Of a DNA stretch of 64,000 bases, positions 5,483 through 20,513 are shown piece by piece. The notes under the pieces were generated by a model. That model worked only from the letters and a program-made list of their open reading frames with translations. It did no database searches and was not told the origin of the DNA. Source of the stretch: Escherichia phage W22; sequence record PV159336. One strand, written 5' to 3'. Each line of letters begins with the position of its first letter. Position 1 is the stretch's first letter. Made by a program: the position numbers and the translations under genes.

Positions 5483-8302
5483 ATGTATCCTATTCCTTTA
5501 TTTATGTCAACAACATCAGCTTCAGTAGTAACAGCTACATCTATAACCACTTCCTCTATTGGTATTGCAATAGTTGGTAGTAAAAAGCAACTGACATACA
5601 CAGTTTCACCGGAAGATGGTGCGTTATTTGATATAGCTTTTTCATCTTCAGATAATACCAAAATGGTTATAGATAATAACGGTATGATGGAGTTTGTTGC
5701 TGAAGGCGGTTTTGATGCAATAATGACAGCTAAAAATAATTTAGGTGCTGTCTTAACTGATCAGTCTGGTGGCTATGCTTCAGAATTAAGTGTGTACACT
5801 GAAAGTCTGTCTGCTATGGATGCAGGAACTACTCAACAATTGGTTGCTACAATCAGTCCAGAAGGTGCTAAAGACCTTCCAGACATGGTAATTACGTACA
5901 CCACAACAGATCCAGAAGTAGCTACTGTAAGCCCTACAGGATTAATAACTGCTCTTAAAGATGGCAGTTGCCGTATAGGTTGCACTGCAACTTATCAAGG
6001 AACAGTGGTGGCCTCTGATAGTTCTTATTTAGGTGTTAATGCTGTTCCTGTTATTTCTAATGTAACAGCCGTGGCAAACAGCTATGGAGACATTCGTGTT
6101 GCTTGGGATGTAGCTGATCCGCTAGATGGTGATACTTATACTGTAGAAGTATTAGATTTAAGTAATAACAGTGTCCAGTGGACTACAACAACCACGAATA
6201 CTTACGCCTACTTTGATATCTCTGACTCTATTCCTCTTTATGGGTTTGCTCCAACATACCTTAAAATTAGCGTTAAGAGCACCAAAGCAGCAGCCGTTAT
6301 CTTTAATAACTCAATAGCTACAGATGATTCATTCATTAAAGAAGTTATTGTCTTTGCTGGACAAGATAACGTAAATGCACACTTTACAGAACTATCTGGT
6401 GCAAATAAAGCAGCAATGAGTAGCACAACAGCCCGTAATGCATATGCTACGCAACGTGGTTTAGCAAATGCTGAAGTTCTCCCGTTAAATACAGCTTCTG
6501 GATCATCAGCAGCAGATAAATATGCAGATGATAAAGCCGGAACAGGTACACCAGACAACTACTGGTATGATCTGGATAACACAGCAGATGGGCCATGCTT
6601 AACTAACTTTATCACTAAAGTCACACCTTATGCAAGTAAGGTTAAAGCAATTATTTGGGGACAAGGTGAAAATGATGCTGTATCAGCATCTTCGACTGTT
6701 GCAGGAAGATACAGTAACACTACACGTTACCATGATGCTACGATAGCTATCTTTGATAAGATGCGTACAATAGTTCCTGCTTCTCAAGCAAAAATTGTTT
6801 GGCAGATCCTAGGACGTTCTTATCTGTATGGTGTAGAAGTTAATGGTGTGGATTGGCAGAAATACAGAAATGTACAAAGAACCATCTCTACAGCACGTGA
6901 CGATGTTATCATTGGTTCTTGGGTAGATGGTGCTGAACGTTACAGTGGTTATGTTTATGAAGAAGGTATTGATGGTCGTATCCATTATATTTCTTCTGTA
7001 TACCAGACAGCAGCTACAAAACTTGCTAAATCAGCAGCAGACGGTACAGACCTAACATCAACGTCACCTGTTTGGGTTGATATGGCTGTTCCAACTGGAG
7101 CAACAGCTACTTCCCAACCTAATCAAGATACAATCTTAGCATGGGATGCTCAAGGTTATAGTAAACACTACTTCCGTAATATTAACGTCTTAACAGCATC
7201 TGTATTAACTGAACAAACGCTTAATACGAACAGTTATACGTTTACCTATGCAGATCAAGTAGAACAATATGGTTTTGCAGCAGGTACTACGATATTTGAT
7301 GTTGCATATTATGACGAAGCAAATGATGTGTTATCTCCTTTAGTACGTTTTAATGTTAGCGTTACAGCAGGAAAAGTAGAAGATAAACCTGTCGTGATGG
7401 ACTATGATTTGACGCAAGAAACTCTCCCATCAGATGTTAAGGTTAATGGTGGAAACTCTTTTGCTCGTGCTTCTGGAGATACACTTGTAGCCACTAACAC
7501 CTTGGTTGCTCCGTTGGAGTATGTTGGCACTACCCCTGTAGGTAGACGTGTAACAGCTAACACAGCTACACAAATTTTTGTCAACAACGCCTTAACAAGC
7601 GCAAGCCCGTGGGTAAAGACCAACTTAACTGTTGCAGCTTCATCTGATAAATCTCCGGCTGGAACTACTGCTAATGTATTCAAATTAACTCCGACTACAA
7701 CCTCTGGTAGTCATATCTTAACTGCAACATATACTAACGCGTACAACATATCTGCCGGACGTAACTGGTCTGCCTCTGTTTTCTTGAAAGCGAACGGGAT
7801 TACTAAGGCCAAACTAAGATTAAAAGCAGGGACTGAAGTTAATGAAGGTACTTTTGATTTAGCAGCAGGTACATTCACAGGAAGTGAAGCTAATATTATA
7901 TCTATGGGCAACGGTTGGTATCGTGCTATTCTGCATAAAACAGGGATAGCCAAACAGTCCTCCATAAGTTTTGAAATAATTGCCTTGGATGCTACTGGTG
8001 CGGAGATTTTCGCTGGGGATGGTACTAGTAACCTTGCAGTTTGGTTGCCACAGCTTGAAGGTGCTTCTACAGGAGAAACATCAAAAGCTGGATCGCCTTA
8101 TGTCTGCACATATCCTGGAAATTTAGGAGGAGTATCCTTCACTATACCAAGGAACGGACATACTGGTGTGGATGTTTACTATTCCAACGGAGACGTTGTT
8201 CGTGACGTATTCTCTGGTACGGCATCTACTTGGACAATAAACTACTCCAGCTTGTACGATTGGGGATCAGTCTTTATTACAGGTTTGAAATATTACGACT
8301 AA
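5483..8302 (+). CDS. tail fibre protein with Ig-like (BIG2-type) repeats and SGNH/sialate-O-acetylesterase-like domain
   Basis: 939 aa; N-terminal Ig-like repeats; internal IIWGQGENDA resembles the W-x-QGESN esterase motif; AAGGAG RBS. Confidence 0.5.
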   Translation: MYPIPLFMSTTSASVVTATSITTSSIGIAIVGSKKQLTYTVSPEDGALFDIAFSSSDNTKMVIDNNGMMEFVAEGGFDAIMTAKNNLGAVLTDQSGGYASELSVYTESLSAMDAGTTQQLVATISPEGAKDLPDMVITYTTTDPEVATVSPTGLITALKDGSCRIGCTATYQGTVVASDSSYLGVNAVPVISNVTAVANSYGDIRVAWDVADPLDGDTYTVEVLDLSNNSVQWTTTTTNTYAYFDISDSIPLYGFAPTYLKISVKSTKAAAVIFNNSIATDDSFIKEVIVFAGQDNVNAHFTELSGANKAAMSSTTARNAYATQRGLANAEVLPLNTASGSSAADKYADDKAGTGTPDNYWYDLDNTADGPCLTNFITKVTPYASKVKAIIWGQGENDAVSASSTVAGRYSNTTRYHDATIAIFDKMRTIVPASQAKIVWQILGRSYLYGVEVNGVDWQKYRNVQRTISTARDDVIIGSWVDGAERYSGYVYEEGIDGRIHYISSVYQTAATKLAKSAADGTDLTSTSPVWVDMAVPTGATATSQPNQDTILAWDAQGYSKHYFRNINVLTASVLTEQTLNTNSYTFTYADQVEQYGFAAGTTIFDVAYYDEANDVLSPLVRFNVSVTAGKVEDKPVVMDYDLTQETLPSDVKVNGGNSFARASGDTLVATNTLVAPLEYVGTTPVGRRVTANTATQIFVNNALTSASPWVKTNLTVAASSDKSPAGTTANVFKLTPTTTSGSHILTATYTNAYNISAGRNWSASVFLKANGITKAKLRLKAGTEVNEGTFDLAAGTFTGSEANIISMGNGWYRAILHKTGIAKQSSISFEIIALDATGAEIFAGDGTSNLAVWLPQLEGASTGETSKAGSPYVCTYPGNLGGVSFTIPRNGHTGVDVYYSNGDVVRDVFSGTASTWTINYSSLYDWGSVFITGLKYYD

Positions 8303-9517: not shown

Positions 9518-10465
9518 TTAGAAACAGTGCAGGAAGTTTCGACCATATTGCAAACCAATAGGAGCAAACGGGATATCATCATCGAAATCTTGAACAACAG
9601 GTTCTGGTTCTTTCGGTGCTGGCTCTTTCTTCTCTACTTTTTTAGTTTCTTTCTTAACATCTTGTACTGGAGTAGACATTCCACGGATAGCAGCAGCTAC
9701 TTTATCAGACAAAGCAAGAACTTCACGAGCAGCTTCAATAATCTCTTCTGCCGTTACAGTTTTACCTGTATGATCACGACAAGCGTTAAGAATTGCGTGT
9801 CCAACTGAAGCACCAAGATCATAGTCAGTCACATCAACACCACGATCTTTAGCAATTTCAGCTTTCAGAGTAACAGTTGCAGATTGTACCACACCAGCCA
9901 AATCGAAAGCATCACCTTTCACACCAGCACGTAGAAGCTCCAGAGCGCCGTTTACAGCGTGTCCTGTTTCAATCCCTACGGTATCACGTTTTTTGTAGTT
10001 AGGCTTGTTACCGTCATTATTAGATGGCTTATTTCCACCTTTTGAAGAGGATTGCGCTTGCTGAACACCTTCTGTTGAAAGAATAGTGATTTTACCTTTA
10101 GAGGAGTTGTAGTATGTTTTACCATTCCATTCGGAAGGTTTAACATCCATAGTTAGTTCTACGCCTTTTTCGATAGTAACCCACTTATCACCATCTTTAA
10201 CTTGCAGGTTTTCATGTTCTGGGTGCAGTTTAACTTCACCTAGGCTAACCCAAACACCTTTATCATCAGCACCAGCACCTTTCTCTTTAATAAGCAGAGA
10301 TGCTTTGTGAGTTGATTCAATTTTCTTATCTGGCTGACCTGCAACCTTAATATAAGAGACTTTCATTTCATCAAACTTATCTAGCTTGACATATTCGACA
10401 ATACCTTCAGCCCAGAATGCTTCTTTTTTAGTACGACGGTCGATTTCAGAATTAATTACTGGCAT
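9518..10465 (-). CDS. putative single-stranded DNA-binding protein
   Basis: AGAGGAG RBS; acidic DFDDDIPF motif typical of SSB C-terminal tails, here followed by 15 extra residues; low-complexity Gly/Ser/Asn linker. Confidence 0.45.
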   Translation of the reverse strand: MPVINSEIDRRTKKEAFWAEGIVEYVKLDKFDEMKVSYIKVAGQPDKKIESTHKASLLIKEKGAGADDKGVWVSLGEVKLHPEHENLQVKDGDKWVTIEKGVELTMDVKPSEWNGKTYYNSSKGKITILSTEGVQQAQSSSKGGNKPSNNDGNKPNYKKRDTVGIETGHAVNGALELLRAGVKGDAFDLAGVVQSATVTLKAEIAKDRGVDVTDYDLGASVGHAILNACRDHTGKTVTAEEIIEAAREVLALSDKVAAAIRGMSTPVQDVKKETKKVEKKEPAPKEPEPVVQDFDDDIPFAPIGLQYGRNFLHCF

Positions 10466-10481
10466 AAATTCTCCTCTATAA

Positions 10482-10880
10482 TTACATTACTTTAACACAA
10501 AACTCTCGTAAAAGAGTAGCGTCAGTTTCTTCCAACAGGTATTTACCAAGACCAATACCAAATCCTATTTCACCACTTTCAAAATGGAGAATTTGTATCT
10601 TTTCTCCACCAAGGTTAATTACTTTTGCTTTTCCAGGATTGTCCAAAACATCTCGTATTGTGTCCTGTAGTAGCATTAGTTCACGTTTTGTGATAGTGGT
10701 TTCAGATATCTCTTTGTCTTCTACCCGCACTGTTAAACGGTTGTATCCACCAAAGAGACATAGTATTTGAATAAAAAAGGTATTATCTTGAGGTTCAACA
10801 TCTTTTTTAGTTAGTTCAAGACGATTAGTTTCTCTACTGTAGAACGTCTCGACTAAGATTTTAGAACGATTGTCTGTCAT
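10482..10880 (-). CDS. hypothetical protein
   Basis: 132 aa ORF with GAGGA RBS. Confidence 0.45.
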   Translation of the reverse strand: MTDNRSKILVETFYSRETNRLELTKKDVEPQDNTFFIQILCLFGGYNRLTVRVEDKEISETTITKRELMLLQDTIRDVLDNPGKAKVINLGGEKIQILHFESGEIGFGIGLGKYLLEETDATLLREFCVKVM

Positions 10881-10923: not shown

Positions 10924-11517
10924 TTAAATCTTAAATTCTTCGTTGTTAAATGAATCCAGTGTACGTACTTCTGGTTCTTTGGGAATGAAAACGTCTTTTA
11001 CAAAGCGGAACATAGGGAAACGTTCTGCCATTTTACGGACGTGTGCTTCTTTACCTGTGTATCGGTGATTAATAGTGCAAATATTAGTTTTCAATGCAAA
11101 TTCAAAATCTGGATGATATACATAATTTTGACCATCCCAGTAACACAGGCAAATAGCTACGTCAAAGTTCCATACGATTTCACTGCGTACACCTTCTTCC
11201 ATGATCATAAAGTTAAACTTAAGGTCTTTATAGTATGCTTCAAATACCCATTTCAAATGTGGTAGTTCGGCATAAGTGTGTTCTGTTTGCTTAGTAAGTT
11301 GTTTAACATTACGTGCACCAACACCCAACATCAAAAATTTCTCTACTAGCACGAGTGTATTGTGGTTAGGCATACGCAAGTAAATGTCAATGTTTTGTGC
11401 AGGTTTCTCTAATCGCCAATCACGTACAGCGCCGCCAGCTACAATTGCAAACGGATCTACCAGTTGGCACATACGTAATACTTCTAAAGCGCGTACTTTT
11501 TGATCTTCAATATTCAT
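10924..11517 (-). CDS. nucleotidyltransferase, CCA-adding/poly(A) polymerase head-domain-like
   Basis: Start refined to ATG 11517 (AGGAGA RBS); IVAGGAVRDW motif plus NIDIY acidic pair resemble GGxVRD and DxD of class II CCA enzymes. Confidence 0.5.
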   Translation of the reverse strand: MNIEDQKVRALEVLRMCQLVDPFAIVAGGAVRDWRLEKPAQNIDIYLRMPNHNTLVLVEKFLMLGVGARNVKQLTKQTEHTYAELPHLKWVFEAYYKDLKFNFMIMEEGVRSEIVWNFDVAICLCYWDGQNYVYHPDFEFALKTNICTINHRYTGKEAHVRKMAERFPMFRFVKDVFIPKEPEVRTLDSFNNEEFKI

Positions 11518-11525
11518 ATTTTCTC

Positions 11526-12122
11526 CTATCGTGTCCACTCTTTATGTTGTTCTACATGCTCAAGCATTTCATTATACAGTGCTTTAAGATGTGGAACAAC
11601 TCTTTCATCTTCAGTTTCAAAGAATTTTGTAAGCTGTTCTGCTTTAGCTTTCAACCAGCAAAGATGCGCTTCAATTTCAGTATTAAAACGCCCCAGCGTT
11701 TTCATGCGACCGTCTACTTTTATATTGGCTTTGTATTTATTACGATCTTTTTCGTAACTACAGCCTACCATAGTTCCATGAGATCTTTTACTTACTCTAT
11801 AAGCTAAGAACTTATTAAGATCTCCTGTTACTAAAAGACAGGTATCGGGAGAGTAAACCCTCCCTCCTATAATATCTTTATCAAGTTCTAAGTTTTCCCA
11901 GTTTTCCCAAGTTTGCAACCAGGAGTAGAAATTTGAGAACAGTTTCCATTCTTCACAAACCGTCACCCCCTTATAACAAGGATCACGTTCTTGTTGGCAA
12001 GGGGAGTAACACCTCCCCAACATAGCCATCCATTTCATATAATGCGGCGTTAGTTTCTTACTACCAGGTAGTGTACTCTCGCCTTCCAAATCATTAATAC
12101 CTTCACCATATACGGTAAGCAT
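11526..12122 (-). CDS. putative AP2-like DNA-binding / homing-endonuclease-like protein
   Basis: C-terminal KYKANIKVDGRMKTLGRFNTEIEAHLCW resembles AP2 domain pattern; free-standing between replication genes; weak call. Confidence 0.3.
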   Translation of the reverse strand: MLTVYGEGINDLEGESTLPGSKKLTPHYMKWMAMLGRCYSPCQQERDPCYKGVTVCEEWKLFSNFYSWLQTWENWENLELDKDIIGGRVYSPDTCLLVTGDLNKFLAYRVSKRSHGTMVGCSYEKDRNKYKANIKVDGRMKTLGRFNTEIEAHLCWLKAKAEQLTKFFETEDERVVPHLKALYNEMLEHVEQHKEWTR

Positions 12123-12149: not shown

Positions 12150-14729
12150 TCAGTGACAAGTTGACCATGAACTACCAACATCGTAACCAGCAGTGAGAGG
12201 TACATTAAGATTGTAATACTCACCAGCTTTATTAACAGCGATAGATGCTAATTCTCCAGCACGACTGTAGGCTGTAAACCAACCACCTTTCGGAGATTCA
12301 TGTACGTTAGCCCAAATCTTGCCAGTACGTTTCTCTTCCTCTTCTTTCCAGGCGTTAACTTTATCCAAACATTCTTTATCAATTTTCTTTTGTTCTTCTG
12401 GATCATCAACTTGAGTCCAACCTAAAGATTCTTTAGAGAACCATTTAAAATGCACCAGATCACGAGTTACTTCAAGCTGTGCTTCATCGTGATATGCAAT
12501 CATTTGTTGAACGAATGACTTATTTTTCCAGTCATCAACAAAAAAGTCAACAGCTAATCCTTCTTCTTCGATAAGATCATCGTAGATAACCATTGCTCTT
12601 TTTGCACAAATAACACCACCACTCTGGAACAGAGAGTTAAGTATTGCGTGTGCAGATCGTGTAGGTACTTTCCTACCATCAATACCAAGAATGTATTTCT
12701 TACCTGTTTTAACCCAAAAATCATGCAGACGTTCTTTAAGAAGAGCAAGAGGCTTTGCAGCTTCCCAGAAAGCATCGTATACAAGCTGTCCTGTATACAT
12801 ATCACTACCAATAGTTTTTGCTACTTTTGCAGCTTGAGCACCATAAGTAATGCCATACTTAACAGATTTAGCAGGGCTTCGTTCAAACTTGCGACCAATA
12901 GTGTCAGAAATACGTCGAGCCATCATTGTATGAACATCATTAGGTTTTTCCAACAATAGAGCATTACAATATTCGTGTGGTTCCTGCTCGTACCGCCAAC
13001 AGTAGTGTGATTCTATTTTTGCCTCAAGAGAATCAAAATCATAACCAATTTGGAAGTATTTTGGAACTTCTACACCAAATAAGTTACGCATTTCATATCC
13101 GTACAGAGATGTTACACGTGGGATATTTGCTACTAGCCTATGCTTCATACGAGACGTAGCTGCATCACACGTTGCAGCAGGAGTTGGTATACGACCATCA
13201 GCCCTTACTGCCGCCAGATAACCTTTATCGTAATCCTCTTCATCTTCTTCCCAATCAGCGCCACCACCTAGAATAGAGTTTCTACGATGTTTATACGTAA
13301 GATACTGCACAATCTGCGTAGCATAAGGAAACTTTTCACCTAGTGCTTCCAAGTTAGGACAAATATCCTTCTCTTGCCCTTTTGTAAAGGAAGGGTTAGT
13401 AAGCACTTTAACACCACGACCTTTAGCTTTAGCAATACGATCTCTTAGTTTCCATTCCAAAGTTTCTGGTGTGCACTCCAGATGATCACATCTGTCCTGG
13501 CAGAAATTAGATGCTAATGTTTGATCAACATAGTCACGAATAGCCTTCTCCATTTGTGCTTCATCTTTCTTAATCTTAGTGCCAGATTTAAGAGTGATAT
13601 CTTTATCTTTATATTCAGATGGACTCCAACCTAAACCAACTAACCAATTTTTAATATGTGTAGTGTCGTCTAAAGTAGCAGGTACTGTAGGATCACAAAT
13701 AGGTTCTTCTGCTGGAATAGGTAGTTTAAACTCTTTACCTAATGCAAATAACCACCAACCATCTTCTTTTTGTACAAGTTCACCAGAATGTTTCTCTGCA
13801 AACTTTATCATGTTACTTGAAGGTTCACCATTCTTTTTAAACTGTAGTTTAGGTGGAATGAATGATTTCAAATAACCTTTAGTAGCAGGTTTAGGAGGTA
13901 GCACAGGTTCTGCCTCTAAACGACATGCTTCCATTCGAGCATCCAGATCACGAATATTATCTTCTGCTTGTTTCATATTGAAAGCAAAGCCACGGTGCTC
14001 TTGACGTGTAATAATATCAGCTACACGTTGTTCTAAGTTAAATGGTTCAGACCACTTGTTATAATCACCCCACTCTTCCATCAAATAACGGAACACTGCG
14101 GTGTTAGCTTTGTTATCGTAAATACAGTAATACAGCATATCTGCTGCAAATGTTCTAAATCTTTCAGTTTCAGGAATGTTTTTTCTAAAATCAATTTTAA
14201 CATCCCCTCCAGCTTTCTTAGATAACTCTGCCAGACTATGACCACCGAAGCGATCAGGGTTTAGTGTCTTACTTAAGATCATAGTATCACAAATTTCAAT
14301 GTTACTATTACCCCAAGTATTGTACTTAATACTGTAGTTGAGTTTAAAAAATAATTTAATTGCCAGTAAGTCGAAGTTAATGATGTTGTGTCCAACTACT
14401 TTGGTAATTTTATAGTTTGAATTACCTTTAAATTTACCTGTTCCATTTACAAAATCAGGAAAATCTTTAAGAGGGAAATGGGTATATTCTAAATGCTCAT
14501 ATTCCTCCAGTCGGTATTCATACTTTCCGTCAGTCTCAATATACGGACGACCATCGAAAAGATATTTATCACCATCATGGAAAGCAATAATCTCTCCAGT
14601 ATCATGACTTTCGCACACAATACAGTGCATTGCAAAACTATCTTTTAAACGATATGGACTTGCCAAGTAATCTACACTTTCGTCATTAAGCAAGTTGTTA
14701 CTTTCAATGTCGAAAGTAAAAGCTCCCAT
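12150..14729 (-). CDS. DNA polymerase, family A (T7 gp5-like) with 3'-5' exonuclease domain
   Basis: 859 aa; N-terminal FDIESNNLL (Exo I), motif B KSVKYGITYGAQAAK, motif C YHDEAQLE, T7-like C-terminus ...SWSTCH; GGAGGG RBS. Confidence 0.9.
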   Translation of the reverse strand: MGAFTFDIESNNLLNDESVDYLASPYRLKDSFAMHCIVCESHDTGEIIAFHDGDKYLFDGRPYIETDGKYEYRLEEYEHLEYTHFPLKDFPDFVNGTGKFKGNSNYKITKVVGHNIINFDLLAIKLFFKLNYSIKYNTWGNSNIEICDTMILSKTLNPDRFGGHSLAELSKKAGGDVKIDFRKNIPETERFRTFAADMLYYCIYDNKANTAVFRYLMEEWGDYNKWSEPFNLEQRVADIITRQEHRGFAFNMKQAEDNIRDLDARMEACRLEAEPVLPPKPATKGYLKSFIPPKLQFKKNGEPSSNMIKFAEKHSGELVQKEDGWWLFALGKEFKLPIPAEEPICDPTVPATLDDTTHIKNWLVGLGWSPSEYKDKDITLKSGTKIKKDEAQMEKAIRDYVDQTLASNFCQDRCDHLECTPETLEWKLRDRIAKAKGRGVKVLTNPSFTKGQEKDICPNLEALGEKFPYATQIVQYLTYKHRRNSILGGGADWEEDEEDYDKGYLAAVRADGRIPTPAATCDAATSRMKHRLVANIPRVTSLYGYEMRNLFGVEVPKYFQIGYDFDSLEAKIESHYCWRYEQEPHEYCNALLLEKPNDVHTMMARRISDTIGRKFERSPAKSVKYGITYGAQAAKVAKTIGSDMYTGQLVYDAFWEAAKPLALLKERLHDFWVKTGKKYILGIDGRKVPTRSAHAILNSLFQSGGVICAKRAMVIYDDLIEEEGLAVDFFVDDWKNKSFVQQMIAYHDEAQLEVTRDLVHFKWFSKESLGWTQVDDPEEQKKIDKECLDKVNAWKEEEEKRTGKIWANVHESPKGGWFTAYSRAGELASIAVNKAGEYYNLNVPLTAGYDVGSSWSTCH

Positions 14730-17280: not shown

Positions 17281-18224
17281 TATAAATCCTCGATAAGCAG
17301 TCTGCGGGTTTCATTTAAATCATCAATATTGTAGTTATCTCTTACATATTTAGCAAGAGCCAATCCTTTCTCAATACAAACATCAGGAGATTCGATTAAG
17401 TATTCTACAATATCTTTCCACTCTTTAACTGAATCAGCAAAGAAGATTAGATCTTTAAATTCTTCAGTATAGTAGTTCTCTCGTGGAGAACAAACGAGTG
17501 GCAAACCTTTAGCACCAGCCTCAAGAATTTTTAAATTACTTTTGGCATTATTAAAATGATTATTTACTAATGGAGCTATGGAGATTTGATGACCATCGTA
17601 TGCTTCCATATAACACTCATAAGGACGAATACCTTCATAAACACAATCTGGTTGAATCTCTTCTTTAATTTGCAACCATTGAGCACTACTTAACTCTTCG
17701 TGATCTCTACGAAATCCACATAAAGTTAAATCTTTACCAAAAGCAGGAAGAATTGCTAAATCATGTTTATGTGTTTCACTTCCCGCCCAAACCAGTGGGC
17801 TTTTAGAATAACGATCTTTAGTAAGAACAAACTGCCCTTCATCAAAAGGTAGTCCGTTAGGCACAATATGTACATTATCATTGTATTGGCTTAATTCAAC
17901 CTTTAATGCTGGAGTTGTTGTAGTTACAAGATCGCTTCTTTCAAGGAACCATTTTAGGTCATCTCGGATTTGACTTTCAAATAATCCTTCCAGCATATGC
18001 CCTTCAGGAATAATTAAAGAATCATCCAGATCCATTACCAATTTAAACCCAAGTTGTTTAAGAGCCAGGAAACCTGGCTTTCCACGAGTTGGTACTCCAT
18101 TGAATACAAAAATATTATGCTTAGGATTAATAGTCAGTTTGCGTTTATATGGCAAAATGATTCTATGAAAATCACATACACTATACCTTTCATGTCCACG
18201 TGTGTCAAGAATAATATTAGGCAT
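17280..18224 (-). CDS. glycosyltransferase (GT-B fold-like), paralogue A
   Basis: AAGGAG RBS; shares YDGH-IAPLV-N-FNN-KSNLKILEAGAKGLP block with adjacent paralogue. Confidence 0.5.
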   Translation of the reverse strand: MPNIILDTRGHERYSVCDFHRIILPYKRKLTINPKHNIFVFNGVPTRGKPGFLALKQLGFKLVMDLDDSLIIPEGHMLEGLFESQIRDDLKWFLERSDLVTTTTPALKVELSQYNDNVHIVPNGLPFDEGQFVLTKDRYSKSPLVWAGSETHKHDLAILPAFGKDLTLCGFRRDHEELSSAQWLQIKEEIQPDCVYEGIRPYECYMEAYDGHQISIAPLVNNHFNNAKSNLKILEAGAKGLPLVCSPRENYYTEEFKDLIFFADSVKEWKDIVEYLIESPDVCIEKGLALAKYVRDNYNIDDLNETRRLLIEDL

Positions 18225-18235
18225 ATGGCTCCTTG

Positions 18236-19210
18236 TTAAAGACTTTCAATAACTTGACGACGCAGTTCATTGGCATCTGCAAGATTATAATTAAGACGAA
18301 CGTGTTCTGCAAGCATCATACCACGATCTTCTGTGTATCTAGGGTTCCTCATTAGCTTGACAACTTCATAATGCCAAGATGCTTTAGAGTCTGCATAAAT
18401 AACAGCCTTTGCATCTACCGGATTGAAGTACGGCAGCACAGGAGAACAGATAATAGGAAGACCCTTTGCACCTGCTTCCAAAATCTTCAAATTGCTTTTA
18501 CAGTTGTTGAAGTCATTATCTACCAGAGGAGCAATTGCAATACTGTGACCGTCATACACAGACATATACTCACCTAAATTTTTAATAGCTGGTTTATACT
18601 GTGCATTTGGAATTTTACGTTTTACTTTAACCCACTCCGCAGTAGTTAGATACTGACTATTATTTCCAACAGGTGCAGAAGGATACACTTCATACCCTGC
18701 AATTGTCAATAGCGTATCATCAAATGTGTTAGCTACAAGAGATAAATCAGGTTCATGGCTTGCTCCTCCAGCCCAAACGATAGGCGTGTCAGAATAACGG
18801 TCTTTTGTCAAAGTAAATTGACCTTCATCGTAAGGTAGTGCGTTTCTAATAACGACAACATTACGATTTAAATGACGAATTTTGTAAGCTAGGTATTCTG
18901 TTGTTACAGTAACAACATCTGCTAACTTAACCATCTCTACAATAGTCTTTGAGTGATTAGTAAATACGCCAGCCATATAATGTTCAGGATTAAGCGAATA
19001 AAAGTCATCTAAATCAACAATAATCTTAACACCTTGTGCCTTCAGGCGTTTAACTTCGTCTGATCCACGAGAATACACTCTATTAAAAACTAAAACGTCT
19101 TTCTTAGGCTTAAACGTATTTCCCGCAAATGGCATTACAATACGATGGTAATCACAACCACTGCCTAACTTATTATCACACTTAAGTACAGGAGTATTAG
19201 GATTTACCAT
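18236..19210 (-). CDS. glycosyltransferase (GT-B fold-like), paralogue B
   Basis: Start refined to ATG 19210 (GAGGAGG RBS, overlaps stop of upstream gene); clear paralogue of 17280-18224. Confidence 0.5.
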   Translation of the reverse strand: MVNPNTPVLKCDNKLGSGCDYHRIVMPFAGNTFKPKKDVLVFNRVYSRGSDEVKRLKAQGVKIIVDLDDFYSLNPEHYMAGVFTNHSKTIVEMVKLADVVTVTTEYLAYKIRHLNRNVVVIRNALPYDEGQFTLTKDRYSDTPIVWAGGASHEPDLSLVANTFDDTLLTIAGYEVYPSAPVGNNSQYLTTAEWVKVKRKIPNAQYKPAIKNLGEYMSVYDGHSIAIAPLVDNDFNNCKSNLKILEAGAKGLPIICSPVLPYFNPVDAKAVIYADSKASWHYEVVKLMRNPRYTEDRGMMLAEHVRLNYNLADANELRRQVIESL

Positions 19211-19883
19211 ATTTTTGAGCCTCCTCATAAGAGATAAAAGTTTTACCATTGCGAAGATCCTCCAGTGATTGTTTATATTGTTCCCAGTTTACACCAATCC
19301 CCTGTTCTTTCTCTTCTTTTGACAGATTCGCAAAAGGTAAAGGGTTGTCTCCAAACACATCATCAGGATGGATAAACGCCATAATTCGAATAGGACATGG
19401 TACGCCCTGAATACCTCGGTTCAAACCTGCTAGTGGAACGCGCTGAATCCACTCTGCATCTTCATATCCATAACCGTGGGTGTATGAGCGGAAATAGCCA
19501 GCTTTCTCAATAACTGCACGGGAATACATACCAAACTGGCACATACCTAGTTCCCAAATAACCACTTCACCTTCAATACCTTTTACTTTATCTTTAAAGT
19601 ATTCAGGCATACCAAAGAAATCCCAGCCATTTTCCTTAGCTTGTTTTACAAAATATGTTTCCCAACCTGGCACAACCGGATAGCAATCATCATCAAAAAT
19701 AAACCAGTAATCATACCCTTCATCATAAAACTTTTTCATCAGTTCATTACGAGCATATGCAACACCTTTTCGTTCCCGATCATACTGTACAACAAAAGTA
19801 GCATTAGGATCAGTCACAAGATAATCTTTAAGAGGACGCTTACCTACAGTAATAACACCAACACCAATTTTTGTATTTTCCAA
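19197..19883 (-). CDS. glycosyltransferase (GT-A fold-like, DxD)
   Basis: TTG start with AAGGAG RBS; FIFDDDCYP acidic motif typical of nucleotide-sugar transferases. Confidence 0.45.
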   Translation of the reverse strand: MENTKIGVGVITVGKRPLKDYLVTDPNATFVVQYDRERKGVAYARNELMKKFYDEGYDYWFIFDDDCYPVVPGWETYFVKQAKENGWDFFGMPEYFKDKVKGIEGEVVIWELGMCQFGMYSRAVIEKAGYFRSYTHGYGYEDAEWIQRVPLAGLNRGIQGVPCPIRIMAFIHPDDVFGDNPLPFANLSKEEKEQGIGVNWEQYKQSLEDLRNGKTFISYEEAQKYGKS

Positions 19884-19892
19884 AATAACTCC

Positions 19893-20456
19893 TTAAATAA
19901 TTTTATTCATGTCTTGACAATGTAAAAGGTGTGAAACAGCTTTTCTAGGATCATCATTACCTAAACGGTATGTGTGAAATAAATATAACCCACGTAGTAA
20001 ACCTAGCCTTTTATTGTTAGCGTGTAATGCTTTAGAGAAAATTATATCAAACTGTATTGATCTTTCCTCAAAAGGGATTTCATTCCACAAACTCTTACGA
20101 AAGAGAAGAAAGAATCCTGCTAAGATAGCATCTGTAGGTACTTCCTCTATTGAGTTTCCCCATTCTAGATGTGCTCTTTTTGCAATCTCAATGTGGTGTA
20201 ATATATTTGGATCTTCACTTCTTTCATTATTAAATAATTGATATGTTGATCCCAGTCTATTACAAGATGCACCAAGAACATCAAAATCAGGATTTGAACG
20301 GACTATTGATTCCAACCAAGCAGGTTGTTCTGGAAGAAGAAACATTGTATCAATGTCTCTTAGGCAAATCCAACTATCTTCTGGTAAGACACTTATTGTG
20401 TCATTGATACCTTTTCCAATATCTCCAGAAAGATAGGGAGTTATGTGAAATATCAT
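19893..20456 (-). CDS. putative glycosyltransferase/nucleotide-sugar transferase
   Basis: GGAGGG RBS; CLRDIDTMF acidic motif; fourth member of the transferase cluster; weak call. Confidence 0.35.
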   Translation of the reverse strand: MIFHITPYLSGDIGKGINDTISVLPEDSWICLRDIDTMFLLPEQPAWLESIVRSNPDFDVLGASCNRLGSTYQLFNNERSEDPNILHHIEIAKRAHLEWGNSIEEVPTDAILAGFFLLFRKSLWNEIPFEERSIQFDIIFSKALHANNKRLGLLRGLYLFHTYRLGNDDPRKAVSHLLHCQDMNKII

Positions 20457-20513
20457 ACTCCCTCCGTATTATTACTTTAGCATTTTTAGACTAAAAAGTC
20501 CAAATGGTTTTAC

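Follow-up and report, generated by a model that had tools for sequence, protein, structure and literature searches.

A short Gad2-family nucleotidyltransferase beside the replication genes of Escherichia phage W22, with a rare Asp-to-Asn change at its predicted catalytic site

Introduction

Small nucleotidyltransferases (NTases) that resemble the head of CCA-adding enzymes adjoin the replisome genes of many unrelated phages, where they have been labelled "tRNA nucleotidyltransferase" for more than 10 years. Escherichia phage W22 (sequence record PV159336) encodes one of them in the 64,000-nucleotide stretch analyzed here, which we call the window, and this raises the question of what such a protein does for the phage. 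An initial annotation of the window, made from the sequence, proposed a minimal enzyme able to repair damaged tRNA 3' ends. The idea was already present in existing annotation: a phAPEC8-like gene, 36% identical, has long been labelled 'putative tRNA nucleotidyl transferase / poly(A) polymerase', and in Autographiviridae the name 'tRNA nucleotidyltransferases', with the role left unknown, has come up in discussions of the similar small genes that separate primase/helicase from polymerase. What our analysis adds is a link to the anti-defence protein Gad2, an association with replisome genes across the family and a rare, apparently recurrent allele, D42N, at the predicted catalytic site.

Results

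An ordinary gene of a widespread phage family

The open reading frame for 197 aa on the minus strand was confirmed (Table 1), and its homologues are widespread. The longest reading of this frame opens at a GTG codon at position 11538 and gives 204 aa. We favor the 197-aa start because of the AGGAG motif that lies 5 nt before its ATG and shares bases with the TAG ending the HNH gene (11526-11528); the RefSeq annotation of the relatives uses the same start. The product matches PHROG 1614 'nucleotidyltransferase' with E = 1e-31. An exhaustive HMMER search yielded homologues in 429 cluster representatives at E <= 0.001, and tblastn gave matches in 195 phage records. Regarding the surrounding region, it is present in 55 phage records at 95-99% identity and is 98-99% identical to that of Justusliebigvirus coliphages (Stephanstirmvirinae) such as vB_EcoM_PHB05 (PHB05). 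The NTase is the orthologue of phi92 gp158 and PHB05 gp151, labelled 'nucleotidyltransferase' in RefSeq: an ordinary gene, annotated before this analysis.

Table 1. Features of the NTase gene and its neighbors (positions in the window)
Feature	Position	Strand	Remarks
T7-like family A DNA polymerase	12150..14729	minus	Recurrent neighbor of the NTase family
HNH homing-type endonuclease	11526..12122	minus	Between polymerase and NTase; only in some relatives
Shine-Dalgarno AGGAG	11523..11527	minus	5-nt spacer to the ATG; read from sequence
CDS, 197-aa nucleotidyltransferase	10924..11517	minus	ATG at 11517; stop codon 10924-10926
IVAGGAVRDW, residues 25-34	11416..11445	minus	hG[GS] loop and helix start of the NTase motif
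Codon 42, AAC (Asn)	11392..11394	minus	Slot of the first metal-binding Asp of DxD
Codon 44, GAC (Asp)	11386..11388	minus	Second DxD carboxylate; invariant in the family
Codon 93, GAA (Glu)	11239..11241	minus	Candidate third carboxylate; predicted strand 88-96
HVRKMAERF, residues 159-167	11017..11043	minus	Conserved basic helix past the NTase core
p132	10482-10880	minus	Conserved downstream of the NTase in Stephanstirmvirinae and related phages
p315	9518-10465	minus	Conserved downstream of the NTase; PHROG 4477, no Pfam match

A Pol-beta-like fold with an altered DxD motif

The AlphaFold model, built with an alignment of 112 family sequences, reached a pLDDT of 93.3 and a pTM of 0.85. When it was compared with the PDB using Foldseek, the first 45 matches were all class II CCA-, CC- or A-adding enzymes or poly(A) polymerase (E = 4e-6 to 1e-3, TMq ~0.5). 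BFVD contained many viral proteins of 170-230 aa with the same fold, including ICP1 ORF223 and the NTases of LKD16 and Pectobacterium phages. Model and matches bear out the likeness to the head of class II CCA enzymes and poly(A) polymerases that had been proposed from the sequence. A Pol-beta-like fold, whose absence the initial annotation had named as the finding that would speak against it, is present in the predicted structure, so the fold claim stands.

The IVAGGAVRDW string on which that claim was based is indeed found at residues 25-34. According to the family alignment (112 sequences), G28 and G29 are invariant, and at least 90% of the members retain A27, A30, R32, D33 and W34. The 'acidic pair' that had been read in NIDIY fared less well: residues 42-46 do spell NIDIY, but what occupies the DxD slot is N-I-D. 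In terms of motif A of class II enzymes, GGAVRD is present and the DxD slot reads N42-I-D44 (the family consensus is DLD). Of the traits of the Pol-beta superfamily, the GG loop and the fold are present, and Asn takes the place of the first carboxylate. E93 is the candidate for the third one, at a position where 75 of the 112 family members have E or D. Past the core, the basic helix retains K162 in at least 90% of the sequences, with H/Y159, K/R166 and F167 conserved as well, and could possibly contact the NTP or a nucleic acid.

The protein is not a CCA-adding enzyme, judging from its sequence

At the sequence level, the similarity to CCA-adding enzymes is limited to motif A. The family profile matched CCA enzymes of the PDB with E = 3e-4 to 1e-2 over ~40-60 residues (GGAVRD...DxD), and its hhalign comparison with E. 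coli Cca covered 26 columns with 28% probability. The PolyA_pol model (PF01743) gave the window NTase 16.1 bits, with a cut-off of 23, and was matched at E<0.01 by just 15 of the 112 family members; the NCBIfam CCA model NF009814 gave 11.3 bits, with a cut-off of 290. The comparison with head-domain proteins that the initial annotation had recommended came out in favor of the fold and of a profile-level alignment over motif A, with the scores for the PolyA_pol and CCA profiles falling below their cut-offs.

In class II enzymes, the selection of C and A depends on an amino-acid template made up of the RRD (motif B) and EDxxR (motif D) motifs. Both are absent from the consensus of the 112 family sequences. 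The protein had also been described as far shorter than a full CCA enzyme, and rightly so (197 aa compared to roughly 350-500). This length leaves no room for the body or tail domains that bind tRNA, and the head-neck-body-tail architecture, which takes ~350 aa or more, is not found in a family whose members mostly have 175-230 aa.

Regarding the genomic context of tRNAs, the close relative PHB05 carries a cluster of 16 tRNA genes at 51.2-54.2 kb, all of them with an encoded 3' CCA. There are no tRNA genes in the 64-kb window, and the RNA ligase/phosphoesterase pair of PHB05 is located ~50 kb from the NTase gene. This circumstantial evidence does not favor a role in tRNA repair.

One could still argue for a minimal version of a CCA-adding enzyme, or for an enzyme that tails RNA in the poly(A) manner, as a means of mending tRNAs damaged by host nucleases, given that the nearest solved folds and the alignment of motif A both lead to class II enzymes and that phAPEC8-type and Autographiviridae relatives bear the tRNA label. 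We regard this as quite unlikely. The similarity does not go beyond the 26-60 residues of motif A, the template motifs and the domains for tRNA are missing, and the scores are far under the cut-offs of the dedicated profiles; besides, the 16/16 tRNA genes encoding their own CCA, the lack of linkage to the phage RNA ligase/phosphoesterase genes, the replisome (and not tRNA) genes that surround the family, and the NxD of the window copy all speak against it. From sequence comparison we conclude that the window NTase is not a CCA-adding enzyme, and the proposed CCA addition or tRNA 3'-end repair is not supported.

Gad2 is the closest characterized relative

The precomputed Pfam match of the exact window protein, and of its cluster, is PF26128 'Gad2' (E<=1e-5), a family centred on the anti-Gabija NTase of Bacillus phages and also assigned to bona fide Gad2 homologues. 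We compared profiles with hhalign using the Gad2 sequences from the supplement of the Gad2 paper. The NTase family profile matched SPbetaL7 Gad2 with 95.7% probability (E = 1e-8), and a 36-sequence Gad2 profile with 97.2% probability (E = 4e-11) over 122 columns, corresponding to Gad2 residues 17-141. These matches indicate that the two NTase cores are homologous. The window gene product appears to be a stand-alone nucleotidyltransferase of ~200 aa with a predicted Pol-beta fold, in the phage family that Pfam assigns to PF26128 'Gad2'. By profile comparison its closest characterized relative is Gad2, and it would seem to represent a short subfamily, sister to Gad2 itself, inside the Gad2 family, with the window protein ending ~55 residues past the aligned core.

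Gad2 is a 400-aa protein of the Bacillus phage SPbetaL7 that counteracts the Gabija defence system, and its knockout sensitizes the phage to Gabija. A homologue from a Brevibacillus laterosporus prophage suffices to protect phage SPbeta. AlphaFold2 predicts an NTase domain in Gad2, and the SPbetaL7 protein is toxic on expression; toxicity upon over-expression has been described for Gad2 and for a related NTase of a T7-like phage. A 2026 review still lists the mechanism of Gad2 as unknown and reports that Gabija acts at phage DNA ends without RecBCD activity. Gad2 is the only member of the family with a known phenotype, and the profile link to it shifts the working hypothesis for the window gene from tRNA repair to counter-defence.

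P0059, which has the length of Gad2 (400 aa), was rejected as a counterpart of full-length Gad2: its NTase sits at the C-terminus of another kind of fusion and it has no Bacillus phage matches. P0059, P0102, P0065, P0100 and P0095 are proteins of 280-400 aa in which repeated N-terminal units of ~80 aa are fused to the NTase, and no Pfam or NCBIfam family explains these units.

Small phage NTases of the Pol-beta superfamily are also known from a different kind of counter-defence: Ho et al. described MNT-like phage NTases whose products, competitor cyclic dinucleotides, counter TIR-STING. That such enzymes exist, and that the toxicity of over-expressed Gad2 and of the T7-like phage NTase fits a diffusible or promiscuous activity, would be in line with the window NTase blocking a host sensor by means of a decoy oligonucleotide, either cyclic or linear. 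We find this very unlikely. As to family membership, the MNT-like enzymes carry two motifs, GS-x-AY[GAN]T-x4-SDxD and NP-x-h2[DE], and the window NTase has neither of them: its sequence reads AGGAVRDW...QNIDIY, with no NP-x-h2[DE]. Membership in the cyclic-dinucleotide-making phage NTases (beside Atd1 in related phages) was rejected since the motif family differs.

The family is associated with replisome genes

The gene order in the window is T7-like DNA polymerase, HNH endonuclease, NTase, p132, the SSB-like p315 and a DNA methyltransferase. The gene had been assigned to the replication module, and this placement is correct; the association is general to the family. For the family context we took 80 related IMG/VR loci, grouped into 38 clusters at 60% identity, and compared the 150 neighbors encoded within two genes on either side with PHROGs. 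The commonest neighbor proteins at the 38 viral loci were primase/helicase (12), DNA polymerase (8) and HNH endonucleases (5). Among annotated phages, the NTase is located by the polymerase in Stephanstirmvirinae, PsgM04F and Pseudanabaena phage PA-SR01, beside ribonucleotide reductase in Aeromonas phage PhAER-4, and beside DNA ligase and NARP2-like NAD-salvage genes in ICP1-like phages. In the latter, as seen in Vibrio phage JSF4 (L003, 3959-4535), the homologue is truncated or split into the 137-aa ORF223 and a small ORF; only its N-terminal ~126 residues align, and it lies ~2 kb upstream of the NARP2-like NAD-salvage genes.

The HNH gene is absent in relatives L006, L014 and L021-L023, and some relatives have a polymerase of 1104 or 1182 aa in place of the HNH arrangement, which points to homing-endonuclease or intein mobility around the polymerase gene.

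Recurrence beside the primase/helicase and family A DNA polymerase genes of unrelated phages would also be expected of a replication accessory, that is, a terminal transferase or nucleic-acid tailing enzyme acting on phage DNA replication or DNA ends independently of immunity. In fact, the location beside replication genes fits a direct part in replication just as well. Still, the gene is missing from most phages with the same replisome type (it was found in only 60 of the more than 500 non-Pectobacterium Autographiviridae), phage contigs of complete length still carry D42N, which speaks against catalysis being essential, and the only relative studied experimentally, Gad2, shows an anti-defence phenotype. 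Taking this together, a replication accessory seems an unlikely identity for the protein.

Other genes deserve mention. The 315-aa p315 contains the sequence DFDDDIPF (9566-9589), 15 residues before its own end. The same eight residues form the C-terminal tip of E. coli SSB, to which replication and repair proteins of the host are recruited. In one relative, the p315 region is annotated with a single-stranded DNA-binding protein. Elsewhere in its genome, between 12 and 50 kb, PHB05 encodes an RNA ligase and a phosphoesterase (gp089/gp090), a MazG-like pyrophosphohydrolase (gp083), a Sir2-like protein (gp035), a NARP2-like ribose-phosphate pyrophosphokinase and nicotinamide phosphoribosyltransferase (gp100/gp101) and three DNA methyltransferases, all of them candidates for counter-defence or repair functions. 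Four consecutive glycosyltransferase genes, PHB05 gp157-gp160 (L001 16281-19457; window ~17300-20500, minus strand), adjoin the primase/helicase gene. On the plus strand, positions 5483-8302 of the window encode a 939-aa protein ('tail protein' in PHB05) whose central GQDN...GQGENDA has, by eye, the look of an SGNH/acetylesterase-type hydrolase; a hydrolase-like segment would be in keeping with phi92-like phages having a multi-spike host-range apparatus.

A rare D42N allele on two haplotypes

Position 42 is Asp in 111 of the 112 aligned family members, the sole exception being the window protein. Among all the other family proteins and loci that were retrieved, a regular-expression survey gave DxD for 316/316 sequences, and residue 42 is Asp in 15/15 listed members of the 90%-identity cluster of the window protein. 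D42N is the only difference between this protein and phi92 gp158. The exact N42 protein was found on three contigs, compared to 472 index blocks of the public collection for the D42 (phi92) protein. A search with a degenerate DNA pattern found no N42 allele in IMG/VR or in the JGI metagenomes; the pattern matches just two D42 copies in IMG/VR, so that allele frequencies are not obtainable from these collections.

One of the three N42 contigs, ENA ERZ27238227 (150 kb), has AAT at codon 42, compared to AAC in the window, and both genes differ by 12 synonymous substitutions. This second allele was found by looking up the exact protein, so the zero non-synonymous differences are built in and are no evidence of purifying selection. 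We then compared the haplotypes of both N42 alleles with ten D42 genes. The window allele differs at 5-6 positions from the D42 alleles L015 and L018, the latter with GAC at codon 42, and the downstream 1 kb shows 4-6 differing sites relative to the same loci. The ERZ27238227 allele differs at 2 positions from the D42 allele L022, whose codon 42 is GAT. The two N42 alleles also carry different bases at gene positions 120 and 126, on either side of the mutated one. With N42 on two haplotypes whose flanking markers differ, two independent G-to-A changes are more parsimonious than a common origin, so D42N probably arose twice, as far as the haplotypes tell; a very short conversion tract could also have supplied the second allele.

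In Pol-beta NTases, which use a two-metal mechanism, the first Asp of DxD is a ligand of the catalytic metals, and the N42 protein is expected to be strongly impaired for this reason. It is probably catalytically crippled or strongly attenuated and otherwise intact.

How should such an allele be interpreted? It could be a neutral or slightly deleterious change in an inactivated gene on its way to decay, which would say nothing about function. The rarity of N42 (three contigs, compared to the 472 index blocks with D42) and its possibly young age, with the nearest D42 alleles only 5 and 2 substitutions away, agree with such a remnant. However, the same G-to-A change is present on two haplotypes (AAC by GAC-type and AAT by GAT-type neighbors), suggesting recurrence, which under neutrality is unexpected at an otherwise invariant catalytic residue. 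Moreover, neither allele carries a frameshift, a stop codon or any further amino-acid change. In view of this, we deem decay rather improbable.

It is also conceivable, although we consider it unlikely, that selection has repeatedly favored D42N as a way of knocking down the catalysis of a Gad2-family enzyme. This idea is based on the toxicity of Gad2 and of the T7-like phage NTase, which would make the activity costly. As an alternative driver of the switch-off, the active enzyme might be sensed by another host defence; there is a precedent in Gad3, an anti-Gabija protein that triggers AbiK and whose escapers carry loss-of-function mutations. If the knock-down reading were true, some phi92-like lineages would retain the protein with its chemistry off, and natural D/N allele pairs would provide a genetic handle on the function of a widespread, replisome-linked NTase family.

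Discussion

We propose that the normal, D42 form of the enzyme serves counter-defence during phage replication by transferring a nucleotide to an acceptor, and that the allele found in the window is probably crippled. We give this reading a probability of about 0.5. In the proposed mechanism, the D42 enzyme would bind the NTP through the GG loop and the following helix (R32 and D33), while D42, D44 and probably E93 would hold two Mg2+ ions, and an NMP would be moved onto a hydroxyl acceptor. The gene would be co-expressed with the replisome genes, and its product would work as a counter-defence enzyme while phage DNA is being replicated, rather than in CCA repair of tRNA. We favor this role because of the expected co-expression with replisome genes and because Gad2 neutralizes Gabija, a defence directed at DNA ends; the Gad2 phenotype, the toxicity of related enzymes and the patchy distribution of the family lead to the same inference.

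For annotation practice, the lesson is not to pass on the label "CCA-adding enzyme" with this gene. From an experimental point of view, the natural Asp-to-Asn allele of the catalytic site, apparently present on two backgrounds, allows an isogenic comparison of D42 and N42.

Compared with known systems, the window NTase shares with class II tRNA nucleotidyltransferases and poly(A) polymerase I the head-domain fold and the GGxVRD...DxD pattern of motif A, and differs from them in having no motifs B and D, neck, body or tail. A stand-alone protein of similar design is known from PDB 2LA3 (Streptococcus pneumoniae NP_344798.1), a 191-aa 'CCA-adding enzyme head domain' protein, although it is bacterial and has 8% sequence identity to the window NTase. 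Among phages, the small NTases of Autographiviridae (Pectobacterium phages PP47 and Q19, LKD16 and probably Emajogi gp22) are alike in length (~170-200 aa) and in their location in the primase/helicase-polymerase interval, and the likeness to the window NTase is at the fold level (TM ~0.55-0.6, with 14-18% identity).

With Gad2, the window protein has in common the AGG...D-h-D-h-Y motif, a conserved Q/N in the next strand and an F-D/x-h-[ST]-h-C segment. The differences are several. Gad2 has ~400 aa, of which a conserved stretch of ~250 residues at the C-terminus has no counterpart in the window protein; the idea of a split gene, with p132 or p315 as the missing part, was rejected (16% and 0.3% probability, respectively). 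The helix after the GG loop reads GGTITSLF in Gad2 and GGAPRDW in the phage subfamily (GGAVRDW in the window protein), and in this segment PRDW is closer to class II tRNA nucleotidyltransferases than to the ITSLF of Gad2. D45 and D47 are invariant in Gad2, whereas the window copy has N42-x-D44. Hosts and phage types also differ, the anti-Gabija phenotype being established for SPbetaL7 Gad2 and the Brevibacillus homologue. With the C-terminal part missing and no substitute in the neighboring genes, anti-Gabija activity is not simply transferable to the window NTase. The nearest counterpart is phi92 gp158, which likewise lies downstream of a T7-like DNA polymerase and upstream of p132 and p315.
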